A stretch of DNA of 64,000 bases, taken from the NCBI GenBank assembly GCA_048882485.1, contig JBHLRP010000011.1, forward strand, positions 1 through 64,000. The letters are read 5' to 3'. The first letter of the stretch is position 1. Each line of letters begins with the position of its first letter. Positions 46,892-52,101 of the stretch are shown here, piece by piece. A program made the translations under genes and the position numbers. The DNA comes from Candidatus Thorarchaeota archaeon. GTDB lineage: Archaea > Asgardarchaeota > Thorarchaeia > Thorarchaeales > Thorarchaeaceae. The notes below the pieces were generated by a model. It saw only the letters and a list, made by a program, of their open reading frames with translations. It was not told the origin of the DNA and searched no databases.

Positions 46892-47035
46892 GGTCCCACG
46901 AATTAATTCAGAGGGCAGTGTGCCCTCCCTATTCTCCCTCAAATATACCTGATAATACTCTCTCTTATAGTAGCAGTAGACCATTCTCAACCAATAGTCC
47001 ATTCTGGACTAAACACTTGAGTGAAGGTTTCTGCG

Positions 47036-47794
47036 ATGCAAGAACGTCTCCAATCTGAACTCTTCGCCTCAATAGCAACCCTTGACCAGCTGAAGAAGAT
47101 GTTCGACATGGGCATAGTCGACATCAGATCCTATCAGAGGGAGTCTGAAGCACTGGCCAGTGAGGTAAAGGCGAATATTGCAGACCTGAAGCGCATCGGT
47201 CTAGATTTCGGCACCTTCATTCAGACTGAACGTGTTGCAGAACGATTCCCTGATGCTATTATGCTGCTTGACATTTCCCGACGTGAAAATAGATACCGTG
47301 GCGACGGCATGACAATGGATGAATATTATGACCACATTGGCCTCGCGATTCTTGATGTGGCAACTGTACATGCATCCAAGGGACTCATGGGACTGGCTGA
47401 ACTGATTGTTGAAGTTGTGAAGCGCATGCCTGAGCTAAAGGCAATAAGCTATAGTGATGTAATTGAGGCTGTCAACCGTGTAGCTGAGCACGGGCTAATC
47501 CCTGGAATTCGGACTCTGCGCGGTGGCGTGAAAGTTGTCGAGCTCCGCCCGCTTGAGCTCCGGAGGGACCAAGCGGATGTGGTGAACCTCGCTGCATCAA
47601 AAGGCTATGTTTCCGTTGAAGAAGTAATGATGCTTATGAAATGGTCTGAGGATCATGCAAGGCAAGTCCTATCCAGTCTAGTAGACGCCGGTATGGCAGT
47701 GGCAGACATTCGATTCTCAACCGGGGGCAGATACTACTTCCCAGGTCTACGTGCTAGGGACTCCAGCGATGGTGGACCTATCTCACGGCGATAG
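47036..47794 (+). CDS. ESCRT-II EAP30/Vps22-Vps36-like protein with Vps28-N-like N-terminal region
   Basis: C-terminal: YYDHIGLAILDV, GLMGLAEL, IS.SDV..AV, P.EL..DQ..V, GYVS, W....A..VL..L, D.....YYFP; N-terminal: ELFASIATLDQLKKMF..G......Y. Confidence 0.8.
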   Translation: MQERLQSELFASIATLDQLKKMFDMGIVDIRSYQRESEALASEVKANIADLKRIGLDFGTFIQTERVAERFPDAIMLLDISRRENRYRGDGMTMDEYYDHIGLAILDVATVHASKGLMGLAELIVEVVKRMPELKAISYSDVIEAVNRVAEHGLIPGIRTLRGGVKVVELRPLELRRDQADVVNLAASKGYVSVEEVMMLMKWSEDHARQVLSSLVDAGMAVADIRFSTGGRYYFPGLRARDSSDGGPISRR

Positions 47795-47795
47795 G

Positions 47796-48518
47796 TTAAA
47801 CGACAATCTTGATTGCCCCTTTCTTCTTATCCACCCAATCTGCAAGTCCTTTCTCTACCATTATTAGGAGTATCTGATGAAGGTCCTTCTCTGGCAGTCT
47901 AGCGAAGCTATACTCCTCTTCCTGAATGACTATTGATTTGACATCTAGTCTAACCTTTCCTGACTTCAAAGCCCATTCATAGATAATGTCCGCCCATTCC
48001 TCAAGGAATCTCCAGTAGACTCGCAATTGTCTTCGGTTTCTATCCAACCATTCTGCAATTTCTTTCTCAACAAGCACATTGCCAATTAACTTGAAAGAAT
48101 CAATCTTATTCGTAATATCGTTGAAGGGGGGCTCCTTGATGAAGGCGGTCACGGATAGGACATGAACATCATGAGCTTCCATCCATCTAAGAACGAAATC
48201 AGACCACTCTTCAGCCCACATGTTTCTGTCTTCTTCTCGAGGAGGTATACCATACATCCACTCCGTCTGTGTAAGATCTCCCCAGGGAGGCATGATGACA
48301 ACTTCTTCCGTTTCGACTAAAACCTCCTCGGCTTCTACAGTTTCTTCGACAGCAGTGTCTGTTTCCACTTGCGTAATAACAACTTCTGGCTTGTGGATTT
48401 CCTCTGCTTCTTCAATCTCTTCGACAGGAATTACTTCATCTACAGTGGGTTCTGCTGTTGAGGTTTCTGACGTAGTCTCTTCCTTCTCCTTCTCCCTACG
48501 TCTTTCTCTGACACCCAC
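47796..48518 (-). CDS. ESCRT-II Vps25-like protein with acidic N-terminal extension
   Basis: W..EWSDFVL.W, LVEK..AEWLD, VYWR..EEWADIIYEW, L..MVEKGLA; downstream of vps4. Confidence 0.8.
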   Translation of the reverse strand: MGVRERRREKEKEETTSETSTAEPTVDEVIPVEEIEEAEEIHKPEVVITQVETDTAVEETVEAEEVLVETEEVVIMPPWGDLTQTEWMYGIPPREEDRNMWAEEWSDFVLRWMEAHDVHVLSVTAFIKEPPFNDITNKIDSFKLIGNVLVEKEIAEWLDRNRRQLRVYWRFLEEWADIIYEWALKSGKVRLDVKSIVIQEEEYSFARLPEKDLHQILLIMVEKGLADWVDKKKGAIKIVV

Positions 48519-48521
48519 TCC

Positions 48522-49745
48522 CTAGGAACCCTCCGCCCAATCGATATACCTCTTAACATCCTCTGGAGAAGTTGCTGGCCTTATGTTCTCAATCGCCTGC
48601 AGGAAATCCTCTCTGGATACAGGTCGAATATTAATGATCTTTTCTTCATCATCCATTCTTCCAGTACGCTGTAGGTCCCTTATTGGCTCCATGGCTGCTT
48701 CTCTACAGACGACACTTATATCGCGTCCACTATAGCCCTCACTGAGGTCCGCAAGCTCCTCATAGTTGACTTCGGGAGCGACTTCTATCTCTTCCATGTG
48801 GATCTCGAAGATTCGCTTTCTAGCTGGCTTATCTGGGAGGGGCACGTGAATCTTCTTCTCAAACCTTGACCGAAGAGCGAAATCCAATTCCCATGGTAGA
48901 TTTGTTGCACCAATAACTGTGACCCTATCTTCAAGATCACTGGCGAGTCCCTGCAGCTCTGTTAGAAGCTGAGTCTTGAGTCTTCTTTCTCCTCCAACAT
49001 CATCACCTGACCTAGAAACTCCGACAGAATCCAGCTCGTCCATGAAGACTATGGCAGGCTGATTTCGTCTGGCCAACGTGAAGAGATTCATGACTAGTTT
49101 CTCAGACTCACCAAGCCACTTGCTCACAATGTTGCCTGCTGAAACGTTGAAGAAAGTGGCATTCACCTCGGATGCCACTGCTTTTGCGATCAATGTCTTT
49201 CCACATCCCGCAGGACCGTAGAACAATATTCCTCTCCAAGGCTGACGAGACTTCCCTTTGAAGAGCTCTGGATGCTTCATTGGCGCAATAATCGCATCAT
49301 GAATTGCCTGCTTGGCATTCTCCAAGCCTGCAACGTCGCTCATCTTGACCTTAGGTTTCTCAGTGATGATTGTGTCAGCTATCATCTCCTGCAGTCTTCG
49401 GGTATCTTCATCAACCTCAGCTTCAGAAGCTGTTGCTTCCGTAGACTTTTCCGCTGTTGGCTCTGCTTCAGCAGGAGAAAACACTGGCGGCGTTGTCAAA
49501 CCATCTGGAGGGCCTCTCGCCTTCTTCTTTATTCCAGAGATATAGCGGACTCTGTCAACACACTCTTGTGCCCTGTCAAGGTAATGTTTCTGGACTGAGG
49601 GCAGAGATGCTGCATTTGACAGTTTGATCAGAATTTTGCTTGCTTTCAGATAGTACTGAGCAGCTTCCTTCTTCATTCCTCTCTGGTCAAGCTCTATGGC
49701 CTTGTCAAGTAGGTTTTTCAAGCCCTGGTCTAATCTATCAGACAT
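48522..49745 (-). CDS. vps4: Vps4-like AAA+ ATPase with N-terminal MIT domain
   Basis: MIT AIELD..G...EA..YY; DVAGLE.AK, PWRGILFYGPAGCGKT, SKWLGESEKLV, DELD, GATN.PW.LD, GYSG.DI, MEPIR. Confidence 0.92.
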   Translation of the reverse strand: MSDRLDQGLKNLLDKAIELDQRGMKKEAAQYYLKASKILIKLSNAASLPSVQKHYLDRAQECVDRVRYISGIKKKARGPPDGLTTPPVFSPAEAEPTAEKSTEATASEAEVDEDTRRLQEMIADTIITEKPKVKMSDVAGLENAKQAIHDAIIAPMKHPELFKGKSRQPWRGILFYGPAGCGKTLIAKAVASEVNATFFNVSAGNIVSKWLGESEKLVMNLFTLARRNQPAIVFMDELDSVGVSRSGDDVGGERRLKTQLLTELQGLASDLEDRVTVIGATNLPWELDFALRSRFEKKIHVPLPDKPARKRIFEIHMEEIEVAPEVNYEELADLSEGYSGRDISVVCREAAMEPIRDLQRTGRMDDEEKIINIRPVSREDFLQAIENIRPATSPEDVKRYIDWAEGS

Positions 49746-49905: not shown

Positions 49906-50529
49906 GTGGTGAGACTTTTGGATTCACTCAGAAAGGCATTCAGATGGGGTCGGAAAAAACCCGACATTGGAGAGGTTTCCAGCCAACTCAGAATTCTAAC
50001 GAAACAACTTGCCCGTGAGAGAAACAAGTTGGAGAAGGAAGAACGTGATACAAGGGCGCGAGCTATCAAGGCTCGCCAAGCTGGACAAATGGATGCCTTC
50101 AAGACCTATGCAACTGAGATGGTACGTTTCAGAAGATATGCGCTCTCTACAGACAAGGCACGGCTTCAGATTCTCAAAATCCTTACCCATCTCAATCGTG
50201 CACAGACATCGGCAAGAACAGGCCGCGCACTCGAGGAGGTGGCAAAGATCCTCGGAATGCTTGGCGATACAAGTGACACCCGCAGGCTTGTTGAGAATGT
50301 TGATGAGATTACTCGTCGACTAGACGAATTCGAGATTGAGAGCGCTATATCTGCAGAGGCGCTTGATGCAAGCATGGAAGTCAGTTCAGATGATTTAGCT
50401 GCAGCTATGCAGGAGATAGATGTGGAAGTCGGATTAGCTGATGCAGCATCCGTGGCAGCTAGGCCTGCGTCTGAATCGGAAACTCTTGAGAAAGACATTA
50501 AGGATTTGGAGCGTGAACTGGGCATCTAG
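49906..50529 (+). CDS. ESCRT-III (Snf7-domain) protein, Vps2/24/46 (CHMP1-3)-like
   Basis: Basic helical N-half QL.R...KLEKEE......KA...GQMDA.K.YA.E.VR.R, acidic C-half, amphipathic C-terminal MIM-like helix; divergent from vps4. Confidence 0.85.
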   Translation: MVRLLDSLRKAFRWGRKKPDIGEVSSQLRILTKQLARERNKLEKEERDTRARAIKARQAGQMDAFKTYATEMVRFRRYALSTDKARLQILKILTHLNRAQTSARTGRALEEVAKILGMLGDTSDTRRLVENVDEITRRLDEFEIESAISAEALDASMEVSSDDLAAAMQEIDVEVGLADAASVAARPASESETLEKDIKDLERELGI

Positions 50530-52101
50530 TTACCATCTGTACCCATGACCATGCCTTGTTGCACGCTCGATTTCACGATTGGTCTGATATGAGTCGCGCA
50601 TGAGACCCCGATATCTTCTGATGAAGTCTTCAGGGACCAAGTGTCCGTTTCTCATTAGATGTAGAGTTTCGTTAATCGCATTTTGAATCTCTAGTGCGTT
50701 TCTCCTGAGATATTCCATATCAGATTCGGCAGTTGTATACGAAGGGTCTCGATAGTACCCTCGTCCATAGTCCGTGCGTCCAAGAGTGTCCTCAAGATGC
50801 TCCTTGAACGCTTTAGGATGGTCATAAGGATTCTCAATTCGCCCATATCTTGATGGAGCTGGTCGTGGCTGATAGAATTCAGTTCTCCTAGGATATCCTC
50901 GCTGTACTTCTGAGGCATTTCCAGTTGCGGAGAGCAATGAGTATACCAATCCCTCTATCTTGAGTCTGACATCGCTAATGTTGAGGTTCTTCTGCTCGAT
51001 TTTTCGAACTCTCTGAAGATCACTCTGCATATACTTCTCAAACTTCCTCGCAATCTCAAAATAATCTGGCATGACCTTTTTTGTTTCCTCGCTGCAGGAG
51101 ATCTTCAAATCGCCCTGTTTTAGTCGCAATACAATTCTCTTGCGAAGTCGACCATCTTCTTCGATATCTTTCAAATACATCAGTGGAAACTGGAATACAA
51201 TCTCAGTCTTCTTGCGTAATCTTCCTGTCTCAGCTACTAGGAATAGCCTCTTGTTTGTGATGAAGAGTGTGCCGTAGGCTTTGTCATTTTTCAAGAAGTT
51301 GCTACCTACAACCTTGATGTCCGGCAGAGCAGCTACAGGCAATTCATTAACAGATAGCTCGCCATGTTCATAGAACTCTGCGAATTCCTGCCTATGATAG
51401 CTCAGACCATCAAGTTGCGCCATTACTTCCTGCAGTCTTGGTCTGACCTCATGAAGGCTATCATCGACATGTTGCTTGTAGTACGTGCCGAGCTCTGATA
51501 CTCTATTTCTGACACCTTCAATGAAGGGGAACTGAGCAGGAGTCCACTTGCTATAGTCAATGAGGCCTTTTGTTTCAGCAGCGATTTGCTTTGCTACTAT
51601 CTCAGCTTGATTTCCAATTCGGCTCTTGATTGCAGGCATCTCATCCTGCACTGACTCGACTTTTTCCTCTATCCAATGATAATGTAGGAAGTTAGCCATC
51701 CTGAGAGATACAAGCGTTCTTTTGGCATTATCAAGCTTGGTCATGAACTCTCGCAATTTGGTATGGCCGTACTGAATGCTCATGATGGCTTGCCTAAGCT
51801 CTTGAGCCAGAGTTCGTCGTTTCTCTTCCAATAGGATTATGCGACTTGAGTGGCATCGAGGACAAATGTCAGCTGTGCGTCTACCTGTGTCAATGTTCTC
51901 AGATTCACACTCAGGACAGCTTTCTATCTCTTCGCCCTGTAACGTTGTCAATGTTGCGTGACACTCACGGCACATGTGATACTCTTTGGTTCTTGAGTCA
52001 AGGCACTCTGAGCATAGCACAGTCCCACAATCTTCACACAAGTGACTGGCTCTGTTTCTTTGACAGACAGGACAGCGATGAGATGAGGAGTCTAGTGTCA
52101 A
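50530..52101 (-). CDS. B-box/Zn-finger + coiled-coil + PH/GRAM-like + Vps23/37 steadiness-box-like protein
   Basis: CPVC..HLCEDC...LCSEC, CREC/CPEC/CPRC; GTLFITNKRLFL; AINETLHLMRNGHLVPEDFIRRYRGL. Confidence 0.65.
   Translation of the reverse strand: MTLDSSSHRCPVCQRNRASHLCEDCGTVLCSECLDSRTKEYHMCRECHATLTTLQGEEIESCPECESENIDTGRRTADICPRCHSSRIILLEEKRRTLAQELRQAIMSIQYGHTKLREFMTKLDNAKRTLVSLRMANFLHYHWIEEKVESVQDEMPAIKSRIGNQAEIVAKQIAAETKGLIDYSKWTPAQFPFIEGVRNRVSELGTYYKQHVDDSLHEVRPRLQEVMAQLDGLSYHRQEFAEFYEHGELSVNELPVAALPDIKVVGSNFLKNDKAYGTLFITNKRLFLVAETGRLRKKTEIVFQFPLMYLKDIEEDGRLRKRIVLRLKQGDLKISCSEETKKVMPDYFEIARKFEKYMQSDLQRVRKIEQKNLNISDVRLKIEGLVYSLLSATGNASEVQRGYPRRTEFYQPRPAPSRYGRIENPYDHPKAFKEHLEDTLGRTDYGRGYYRDPSYTTAESDMEYLRRNALEIQNAINETLHLMRNGHLVPEDFIRRYRGLMRDSYQTNREIERATRHGHGYRW

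Follow-up and report, generated by a model that had tools for sequence, protein, structure and literature searches.

Within the 64,000-nucleotide window (the whole stretch of DNA analysed), a reading frame at 50530..52101 on the reverse strand encodes a 523 aa protein from a TTG start, as the preliminary description had it, and it shares its locus with genes for ESCRT components. The genes at this locus, and the segments of the 523 aa protein in order from its N-terminus, are as follows:

47036..47794, (+): Vps22 (EAP30, E 2.2e-14) with an N-terminal hairpin, tentatively of Vps28 type, covering about aa 1-70 when numbered from the ATG at 47036
47796..48518, (-): Vps25 (ESCRT-II) with an acidic N-terminal extension (Pfam ESCRT-II, E 6.7e-16, aa 88-188)
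48522..49745, (-): Vps4 (MIT, AAA and Vps4_C, from Pfam)
49906..50529, (+): ESCRT-III (Pfam Snf7, E 2.3e-11), convergent with 50530..52101
50530..52101, (-): Znr_CC_PH_SB gene, 523 aa, TTG start (reading frame and homologues)
51952..52083, (-): eight-Cys cross-brace-type Zn module, B-box-like, aa 7-50 (Cys conservation, Pfam and fold matches)
51838..51924, (-): third Zn site, a zinc ribbon (C62/65, C80/83), aa 60-88 (invariant Cys, Pfam DZR and a beta-hairpin)
51373..51831, (-): four long helices (91-135, 143-176, 188-216, 219-243), aa 91-243 (AlphaFold, pLDDT 90-98)
51046..51339, (-): basic PH domain of GRAM/GLUE/bacterial-PH type, aa 255-352 (model, fold matches and Pfam)
50734..50922, (-): mostly disordered, variable linker, aa 394-456 (pLDDT below 50 over 394-427 and 441-456)
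50548..50733, (-): steadiness-box helical hairpin of Vps23 type, aa 457-518 (model and family profile)

The start, nine residues ahead of the first Cys, is common to 30 relatives, in most of which it is also TTG. There are 167 full-length homologues, with identities of 49-92% among those listed, and those that carry a source name are labelled Thorarchaeota; of 301 Asgard genomes sampled, 286 contain a match to the Znr_CC_PH_SB family profile. Because of these homologues and profile matches, the features of the protein are not attributable to chance. Whole lengths among the relatives range from 420 to 1171 aa, with linkers of highly variable length, and the AlphaFold model of the 523 aa protein has a pLDDT of 85.9. 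Makarova et al. (2024, mBio, PMC10936438) proposed asCOG cog.011556 (Znr_CC_PH_SB or Znr_PH_CC_SB) as a likely Asgard ESCRT-I component, and a preprint (bioRxiv 10.1101/2023.07.25.550441) lists it as 'Steadiness/Vps23 box'; the family and the ESCRT-I idea have been known since 2024 (PMC10936438) and are not a new discovery here. We assign the protein as the Thorarchaeial member of cog.011556 by homology and by the identical locus order of a relative, P0140. This relative aligns with aa 7-397 at E 3e-32, and its locus (M20 peptidase, C69 peptidase, L35Ae, X, MetE, Snf7(-), DHQS) has the gene order given for the Lokiarchaeum GC14_75 cog.011556 gene (Table S2, PMC10936438).

The N-terminus had been described as Cys-rich, with five CxxC pairs and a His; Cys-rich it is, but the pairs number six (C10/13, C22/25, C30/33, C44/47, C62/65 and C80/83), and the region therefore has three Zn sites. 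None of the 12 Cys varies across 22 N-terminal sequences, eight distant relatives among them, and in an alignment of 54 members ten are invariant and the other two, C10 and C13, at least 90% conserved. These data show that aa 1-90 comprise three structural Zn sites, arranged as an eight-Cys cross-brace, probably B-box-like, and a zinc ribbon. The cross-brace module has the spacing C-x2-C-x8-C-x2-C-x4-C-x2-C-x10-C-x2-C, and its earlier designation as B-box-like holds at the level of the family: with the N-terminal fragment, Pfam zf-B_box scores 23.8 bits, just under its cut-off of 24.1 (E 5.1e-5, aa 7-35), and it matches 28 of the 54 family members (E <= 0.1), with ANCHR-like_BBOX matching 13 of 54. 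Pfam DZR, likewise near its threshold, extends across aa 30-83 (E 7.9e-6), and at the third site the predicted models place a beta-hairpin at E70-79 and the fold comparison returns MCM Zn ribbons (Z 4.5). There is no RING upstream of the B-box-like module, the protein beginning nine residues before the module's first Cys.

The next segment had been described as some 150 aa of heptad helix. Helix is indeed predicted over aa 91-243, in the form of a four-helix region; neither a Pfam family nor a usable match in an Atlas feature search was found for these helices. Of the proposed likeness to a TRIM B-box/coiled-coil protein, the domain order (B-box, then helices) stands, whereas a RING is absent and the four modelled helices give no clear TRIM coiled coil. 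We also considered homology of the helices and PH domain to DH-PH RhoGEFs. Foldseek ranks Dbl-family DH-PH tandems at the top (E ~1e-5), but with a TM of ~0.2 and an rmsd of 17-24 A, and VIA alignments across the helices have an rmsd of 7-14 A; DH homology was rejected, and we read the region as helices plus a PH domain.

In the AlphaFold model aa 255-352 form seven strands followed by a C-terminal helix, and the segment GTLFITNKRLFLV (aa 277-289) lies within this fold. The PH/GRAM-type segment and GLUE-like module of the preliminary description are both supported by the VIA fold comparison, in which the domain matches the PH-GRAM domain of MTMR2 (Z 12.3, rmsd 2.7 over 107 residues), the GRAM domain of Lam6 (Z 11.8) and the GLUE domain of EAP45 (2hth_B, Z 11.3, rmsd 3.7 over 107, 20% identity). 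At the level of sequence, the PH fragment is matched in Pfam by bPH_3 (E 0.0031) and GRAM (E 0.026); PF11605, the Vps36 GLUE model, matches seven of 54 family members (best E 0.014) and gives no match on the 523 aa protein of the window. The domain has a net charge of +7, which is positive in 52 of 54 members, and basic residues at 285, 296-298, 318, 321 and 322 are conserved, distant members included. The low-complexity linker noted earlier is recovered as disorder at aa 394-456, interrupted at aa 429-441 by a helix of lower confidence.

The C-terminal hairpin consists of helices 457-484 and 490-518, both predicted with high confidence (pLDDT 91-97), and contains NAINETLHLMRNGHLVPEDFIRRYRGLMRDSY; G478, F485 and Y489 are invariant. 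Its resemblance to the Vps23/TSG101 steadiness box, suggested previously from the sequence, is supported at the level of the family: profile positions 457-516 align with the steadiness box of yeast Vps23 (2p22_A, E 4.3e-5; 2f66_A, E 8.7e-5; 2caz_A, E 3.7e-4) and of human TSG101 (6vme_B, E 1.8e-3), all four entries in one common register. A profile restricted to Thorarchaeota again ranks Vps23 first, at an E of 0.22 that is not significant by itself, and Vps23_core matches 10 of the 54 family members. In a single-sequence scan the C-terminus of the window protein matches no Pfam steadiness-box family, PF09454 included, and whole-genome scans with the Vps23_core, Mod_r and CdvA models give no match on the gene. 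The family-profile alignments show the hairpin to be homologous to the Vps23/TSG101 steadiness box. Similar hairpins of the form G-x-[IL]-x4-[FY] occur in unrelated proteins of the same genome, one being a Na+/H+ antiporter that ends in such a hairpin.

The gene was reported to abut an ESCRT-III gene, and the Snf7 gene does adjoin it without a gap, the two meeting 3' end to 3' end. The cluster order is the same in a Thorarchaeota relative of 54% identity. A convergent ESCRT-III neighbour is present at 19 of 20 loci outside Thorarchaeota, from seven other Asgard families, and Snf7 is convergent with or adjacent to the Znr_CC_PH_SB gene in Jordarchaeia and other lineages; linkage to ESCRT-III is kept far beyond Thorarchaeota. 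The adjacent ESCRT-III genes outside Thorarchaeota belong to one paralogue clade, and the one in this window to the other; this genome has a second ESCRT-III paralogue on another contig (C2, 49659-50156).

Vps28 is the known partner of the Vps23/TSG101 steadiness box. In the window, the putative Vps28-type hairpin of Vps22 (47036..47794) is the candidate partner that we propose for the steadiness box of the 523 aa protein. Most Vps22 homologues begin at the residue that matches the ATG at 47036, and the C-terminus of the Vps22 profile aligns with human SNF8 at E 4.3e-20. Profile positions 6-70 match only the core hairpin of yeast Vps28 (2f6m_B, 2f66_B, 2p22_B and 2caz_B), at E 0.12-0.2, and across our searches the Vps28-type match of the N-terminus is weak (E 0.08-0.2); its tentative assignment leans on a published HHpred comparison, in which aa 1-70 of the Thorarchaeota orthologue KXH75178 match VPS28 at 99%. 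In the ESCRT-I core structures 2F66, 2P22 and 2CAZ, the C-terminal hairpin of our protein matches Vps23 (chain A), and the N-terminus of Vps22 matches Vps28 (chain B). When the two families were compared by hhalign, the sole similarity was hairpin to hairpin (probability 12.8%, E 0.0022). Other hairpins resembling those of CdvA or the steadiness box are present in this genome, with further hairpin proteins encoded at L042:1483-2031 (-) and L043:1111-1623 (-), and because of these the partner could be another protein.

The reading that we favour, with moderate confidence, is that the 523 aa protein is an ESCRT-I-like, ubiquitin-independent membrane adaptor of the Znr_CC_PH_SB family. The PH domain would dock the protein on an anionic membrane, with the Zn and helical module self-associating or binding cargo, and the tethered steadiness box would pack on the putative Vps28-type hairpin that the neighbouring Vps22 carries at its N-terminus. 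In this way the adaptor would be coupled directly with ESCRT-II (Vps22/Vps25), and ESCRT-II could then nucleate ESCRT-III for Vps4-driven remodelling. The conserved neighbour of the gene is ESCRT-III and not Vps22 or Vps28, an observation that counts against the route through ESCRT-II. A further point against the favoured reading is that the long helices do not run on into the steadiness box as they do in the Vps23 stalk.

No UEV domain was found in the 523 aa protein or, at E < 0.6, in the 90.5%-complete genome, and no match to ubiquitin or another ubiquitin-family protein was found in that genome; the preliminary reading of the protein as a non-UEV subunit acting without ubiquitin fits these absences. 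They agree with Hatano 2022, and a 2023 preprint describes Thorarchaeota and Lokiarchaeota without a UEV-Vps23. A further-reaching proposal, which we hold only tentatively and would expect to fail somewhat more often than not, is that in Thorarchaeia the protein is the sole Vps23-type subunit, its steadiness box seated in the Vps22-fused Vps28 hairpin to give one hard-wired ESCRT-I/II supercomplex. Targeting would then be purely by the lipid-binding PH domain and the B-box-like oligomerising module, a pre-ubiquitin mode, and the loss of a Vps20-type ESCRT-III from the Thorarchaeial cluster would belong to this rewiring too.

Crenarchaeal CdvA is a membrane-binding recruiter upstream of ESCRT-III, and a comparable role for the 523 aa protein is an alternative that we consider unlikely. 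The protein would anchor to the membrane and bring in ESCRT-III itself, by way of the hairpin or the Zn and helical module and not via ESCRT-II, with the steadiness box serving in homo-oligomerisation or ESCRT-III contact. This would account for the identity of the most conserved neighbour, convergent and often abutting; the CdvA hairpin model PF18822 matches three of the 54 family members, and Makarova et al. (PMC10936438) connect the steadiness box with the CdvA hairpin. However, the ESCRT-III in this window is of a different paralogue clade from that found outside Thorarchaeota, and adjacency therefore follows no single ESCRT-III partner; neither a PRC barrel nor an E3B-type peptide is seen in the protein, the best matches of the hairpin are to Vps23/TSG101, and a candidate Vps28-type hairpin lies on Vps22 only 3 kb away.

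The NZF fingers of yeast Vps36 offer a model for a second, improbable alternative, in which the Zn module is the functional core, either as a receptor for cargo or a modifier or as a scaffold of the E3-like RING/B-box kind, the PH domain and hairpin do no more than localise the protein, and coupling to ESCRT is secondary. The family profile matches the RNF4 RING (E 3.2e-5), no residues of the family are more strongly conserved than the 12 Cys, and the weak VIA fold matches of the N-terminus, which are suggestive of a RING/B-box plus ribbon in the predicted model, are mostly to RING, B-box and U-box folds together with Zn ribbons (Z 3.5-5.5 for B-box/RING). Every one of these fold matches is below Z 6, though, and Foldseek with the N-terminal domain alone gives no match at E <= 0.001; the all-Cys, highly conserved pattern fits a structural role equally well, and the genome in which a modifier would be read yielded none of the ubiquitin, UEV or ubiquitin-family matches sought. 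That the C-terminus is a generic SHOCT-like oligomerisation hairpin with no ESCRT function, its gene placed here by local accident, as raised at the outset, has in its favour the G-x-[IL]-x4-[FY] hairpins of unrelated proteins and the failure of the window hairpin alone to reach any Pfam threshold, but is largely refuted and very improbable, given that SHOCT (PF09851) matches eight places in the genome at E <= 10 and none on the contig that carries this gene, that it is absent from the 25 families with the most matches among the members, that four Vps23/TSG101 entries align with the family profile in one register, and that ESCRT-III linkage is kept in seven other Asgard families.

The ubiquitin-independent adaptor that we favour bears on ESCRT-I, of all parts of the Asgard ESCRT machinery the one least understood; in eukaryotes it is the step at which ubiquitinated cargo is read. 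That a near-universal Asgard protein joins a putatively lipid-binding PH domain to a steadiness box of Vps23 type points to a way of targeting membranes before, or without, ubiquitin, and Thorarchaeota, with no ubiquitin or UEV found, provide the cleanest case. The family having been described computationally in 2024, the value of the present analysis lies in well-defined constructs and a specific candidate partner on the adjacent Vps22.

Among known systems, TRIM/B-box proteins and ANCHR (ZFYVE19) share a Zn module of eight ligands, spaced much as in B-box1, with long helices after it. Unlike TRIM proteins, the 523 aa protein has no preceding RING, uses all-Cys ligands with weak fold support (Z <= 5.5), and gives no sign of a TRIM-type antiparallel coiled-coil dimer. 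CdvA resembles it in a hairpin related to the steadiness box (Makarova et al., PMC10936438), but our protein has no PRC barrel, its membrane module is a PH domain, and PF18822 does not match it. With the GLUE domain of Vps36/EAP45 it shares the PH fold and a modelled basic surface consistent with lipid binding, although by sequence the Vps36 model is a more distant match to the domain than bPH_3 or GRAM, and the GRAM domains of MTMR2 and Lam6 score equal to or above EAP45 GLUE in the fold comparison. Yeast Vps36 likewise joins a PH domain and Zn fingers, but the 523 aa protein lacks the EAP30 winged helices, and no inserted fingers interrupt its PH domain. In Vps23/TSG101 the register of the hairpin is the same (L..G.[IL]....F[IV]...R.L.R..[FY]), and the gene of the window is encoded alongside ESCRT-II, ESCRT-III and Vps4 genes; here, however, there is no UEV and no P[ST]AP-binding or ubiquitin-binding module, Zn sites are present at the N-terminus, and in place of a continuous stalk and headpiece the PH domain, two short helices and the ~60 aa mostly disordered linker separate the helices from the hairpin. 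Closest of all are the other members of cog.011556, which have three Zn modules, a helical region, a PH domain and a steadiness box, an equal set in the same order, and which are confined to Asgard archaea, occur widely among them and lie in ESCRT gene neighbourhoods. The Thorarchaeial proteins differ in their length (~520 aa, against ~650-800 in Loki-type members), a consequence of their shorter linker, in an eight-Cys module that looks B-box/RING-like rather than like two separate ribbons, and in lying beside the other ESCRT-III paralogue, and none of these differences is essential.

The open reading frame at 50530..52101 (minus strand) comprises 523 residues from a TTG start codon and meets a convergent ESCRT-III gene stop to stop. 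It encodes a Znr_CC_PH_SB protein (Zn modules, helices, PH domain and steadiness box), and the genes lie in this order:

Genes of the Znr_CC_PH_SB locus
50530..52101, minus strand, Znr_CC_PH_SB protein, 523 aa
49906..50529, plus strand, Snf7/ESCRT-III, its stop adjoining that of the Znr_CC_PH_SB gene
48522..49745, minus strand, Vps4, past the Snf7 gene
47796..48518, minus strand, Vps25, past Vps4
47036..47794, plus strand, EAP30/Vps22, past Vps25

The window covers the initial 64 kb of contig C11, in an assembly of 3.96 Mb with 90.5% completeness. The TTG start (52099-52101) is common to most Thorarchaeial orthologues (loci L009-L038), and the chosen start is 9 residues ahead of the first Cys in 30/30 loci. 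Vps25 has an N-terminal extension of ~85 aa, very rich in Glu/Thr/Val, before its ESCRT-II domain (Pfam, aa 88-188).

An AlphaFold2 model of the protein, built from a 54-sequence family alignment, is confident (mean pLDDT 85.9, pTM 0.67) and predicts the following arrangement:

Predicted architecture of the Znr_CC_PH_SB protein (AlphaFold2)
aa 1-90, small beta-rich Zn module
aa 91-135, 143-176, 188-216 and 219-243, four long helices
aa 255-352, PH domain, seven strands and a C-terminal helix
aa 362-391, two short helices
aa 394-456, mostly disordered stretch
aa 457-484 and 490-518, two-helix hairpin (pLDDT > 90)

The features previously read from the sequence are all found, except for the Cys count: five CxxC pairs and a His had been described, and there are six pairs. 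In an N-terminal alignment of 22 sequences, eight of them from distant relatives, none of the 12 Cys varies; across the 54-sequence alignment ten are invariant, with C10 and C13 at least 90% conserved. Six conserved pairs therefore indicate three Zn sites. The last four Cys constitute a zinc ribbon, and the first eight are spaced like those of B-box1. The isolated N-terminus scores 23.8 bits against zf-B_box (cut-off 24.1), a model matched by 28 of the 54 family members, and 13 of the 54 match ANCHR-like_BBOX. When aa 1-95 are modelled on their own (pLDDT 81.6), the fold matches are mostly to RING, B-box and U-box, and also to MCM and other zinc ribbons; because all of these are weak (Z <=5.5), the B-box-like character proposed earlier for the first Zn module, which the spacing and near-cut-off score favor, is plausible rather than proven.

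The top structural matches of the PH domain span about one Z unit:

Structural matches of the PH domain
MTMR2 PH-GRAM, Z 12.3, rmsd 2.7 A over 107 aligned residues
Lam6 PH-like, Z 11.8, rmsd 2.9 A over 108 aligned residues
EAP45 GLUE, Z 11.3, rmsd 3.7 A over 107 aligned residues, 20% identity
BBS5 PH, Z 11.1, rmsd 2.4 A over 99 aligned residues
bacterial PH (3hsa), Z 10.9, rmsd 2.8 A over 104 aligned residues

With MTMR2 PH-GRAM and EAP45 GLUE both in this set, the earlier GRAM/GLUE-like call holds. By sequence, family members match bPH_3 (30/54), GRAM (7/54) and the Vps36 GLUE model (7/54). The domain has a net charge of +7 and is net positive in 52/54 members, with basic positions kept across distant lineages, compatible with binding to anionic membranes.

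When the whole-family profile was searched against all PDB sequences, positions 457-516 aligned with yeast Vps23, as found in three independent entries of the ESCRT-I core (2p22_A, E 4.3e-5; 2f66_A, E 8.7e-5; 2caz_A, E 3.7e-4), and with human TSG101 (6vme_B, E 1.8e-3), in keeping with the steadiness-box resemblance noted previously. Pfam Vps23_core is matched by 10/54 members (best E 7.2e-6), Mod_r by 4 and CdvA by 3. With a profile of Thorarchaeial C-termini alone, searched against 177,635 sequences, Vps23 ranks 1st, 2nd and 4th and keeps that register, at an E of just 0.22. The assignment draws on family-level evidence because the protein's own sequence falls below threshold for every steadiness-box model; at that level, the hairpin is best read as a Vps23/TSG101-type steadiness box. 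A generic SHOCT-like hairpin, the alternative named at the outset, is disfavored, as the SHOCT model has no match on the gene even at E <= 10. Profile positions 458-517 also match PDB 8whn_A (161 aa; E 0.027), whose deposited name is 'Ribophorin 1 superfamily protein', and at the locus of one distant homologue (L044) a Ribophorin_I-like gene is immediately downstream.

A likely partner is encoded nearby. The longest Vps22 ORF (47021-47794) begins at GTG 47021, and most homologues start at the residue matching ATG 47036, probably the true start; from this conserved ATG the protein opens with a highly conserved hairpin. The C-terminal part of the Vps22 family profile matches human SNF8 (E 4.3e-20), and positions 6-70 match nothing but the core hairpin of yeast Vps28 (2f6m_B, 2f66_B, 2p22_B and 2caz_B, E 0.12-0.2); HHpred gave 99% to VPS28 for aa 1-70 of the Thorarchaeial orthologue KXH75178 (Makarova et al., PMC10936438). 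One hairpin thus matches Vps23 and the other Vps28, which makes them homologues of chain A and chain B, respectively, in the same solved ESCRT-I headpiece structures, where those two chains pack together. The sole similarity between the two families (hhalign) is hairpin to hairpin, at low probability. On these sequence grounds, the Vps22 hairpin is the likely candidate partner of the steadiness box. Neither UEV nor ubiquitin was detected in this genome (90.5% complete), consistent with Hatano et al. 2022 and with a 2023 preprint (bioRxiv 10.1101/2023.07.25.550441) according to which UEV-Vps23 is absent from Thor- and Lokiarchaeia.

The family profile matches 286/301 sampled genomes of the phylum, some of these matches being weak and perhaps spanning only part of the protein, and 88/90 high-quality genomes. 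Among the matches listed, source-named homologues are nearly all labelled Thorarchaeota, and the distant members that a source names come from Jordarchaeia, Sigynarchaeum and Promethearchaeota. The whole cluster order is kept in a Thorarchaeial relative 54% identical to our protein. Linkage to ESCRT genes, raised earlier as a check, is evident among 20 loci from seven other families, picked by top match score and not by neighbourhood: 19/20 have a convergent ESCRT-III gene on the other strand, no more than ~2.5 kb away, 13 have it within 130 bp, and two carry Vps4 and Vps25 as well. This conserved neighbor suggests the main rival reading, that the protein is a CdvA-like recruiter acting directly on ESCRT-III. 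That reading is weakened by the tree of ESCRT-III proteins from these loci, which has two clades (100/100 support): in other families the copy beside the homologue belongs to one, and the window's 49906-50529 copy to the other. The genome's copy of the first clade is isolated on contig C2 (49659-50156, L068), flanked by inositol-monophosphatase-like and HAD-like genes. The Thorarchaeial cluster apparently derives from an ancestral order in which Znr_CC_PH_SB was followed by a pair of ESCRT-III genes and these by Vps4 and Vps25, with one ESCRT-III gene since lost.

We favor a role on the ESCRT-I side. The PH domain would anchor the protein at the membrane, and its Zn and helical module would oligomerise or bind cargo. 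The tethered steadiness box would capture Vps22 by its Vps28-type hairpin; Vps22/Vps25, recruited to the membrane in this way, would nucleate ESCRT-III, and Vps4 would then recycle the ESCRT-III. This model builds on the observed domain identities, conservation and gene linkage, with all of its binding steps proposed.

Related hairpins occur elsewhere in the genome. A 543-aa Na+/H+ antiporter-like membrane protein on contig C29 (L041:178-1809, plus strand) carries two tandem CdvA/steadiness-box-like hairpins at its C-terminus (PF18822, at the cut-off with 30.2 bits). Steadiness-box proteins might bind it, as cargo or as a partner; alternatively, the hairpin might be a more general oligomerisation motif. 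On C2, a 183-aa protein (L042:1483-2031, minus strand) has an N-terminal coiled coil, a Pro/Ala-rich linker and a C-terminal steadiness-box/CdvA-like hairpin (PF18822, E 1.7e-4), and adjoins an Arf-family GTPase of 308 aa that is extended at its N-terminus (L042:2169-3092, minus strand); at L044, a Roadblock-Arf GTPase is two genes from the homologue. A 171-aa protein on C25 (L043:1111-1623, minus strand) combines a PCI/winged-helix domain (E 6.7e-7) with a steadiness-box-like hairpin at the N-terminus (DLELDYMRGLMAEEEY) and a Zn ribbon at the C-terminus, like Asgard steadiness-box, winged-helix and Zn-ribbon arrangements of Makarova et al. A 427-aa helical protein on C10 (L001:1309-2592, plus strand) is the genome's sole match to the VPS28 model (positions 52-185 of the model, E 3.2e-4) and also matches BAR weakly (E 8e-4); it may be the Thorarchaeial form of the 'BAR-SB'-type protein mentioned in Table S3 of that 2024 paper.

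The gene is real and well supported, and its novelty is low because the family is already described. Our small additions are a B-box-like reading of the eight Cys in the first Zn module, a count of how often the gene pairs convergently with ESCRT-III, the apparent ESCRT-III paralogue swap in Thorarchaeota and the chain-A/chain-B argument for the Vps22 hairpin as candidate partner. Our literature search found no experimental paper on Znr_CC_PH_SB, and the family is still a good subject for experiments. The ESCRT-I-side placement in the preliminary description was correct and already known, since Makarova et al. 2024 (mBio) describe the family; the 2023 preprint already has cog.011556 as a "Steadiness/Vps23 box" asCOG. 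Makarova et al. report exactly this architecture, absent from eukaryotes and likely ancestral in Asgard archaea, as a likely ESCRT-I component expected to be membrane-associated via its PH domain. In their Table S2, the Lokiarchaeum GC14_75 gene has L35Ae on one side and MetE on the other, followed by Vps20 and DHQS, and the gene order around P0140, a relative of our protein (E 3e-32), is identical to that of this published locus.
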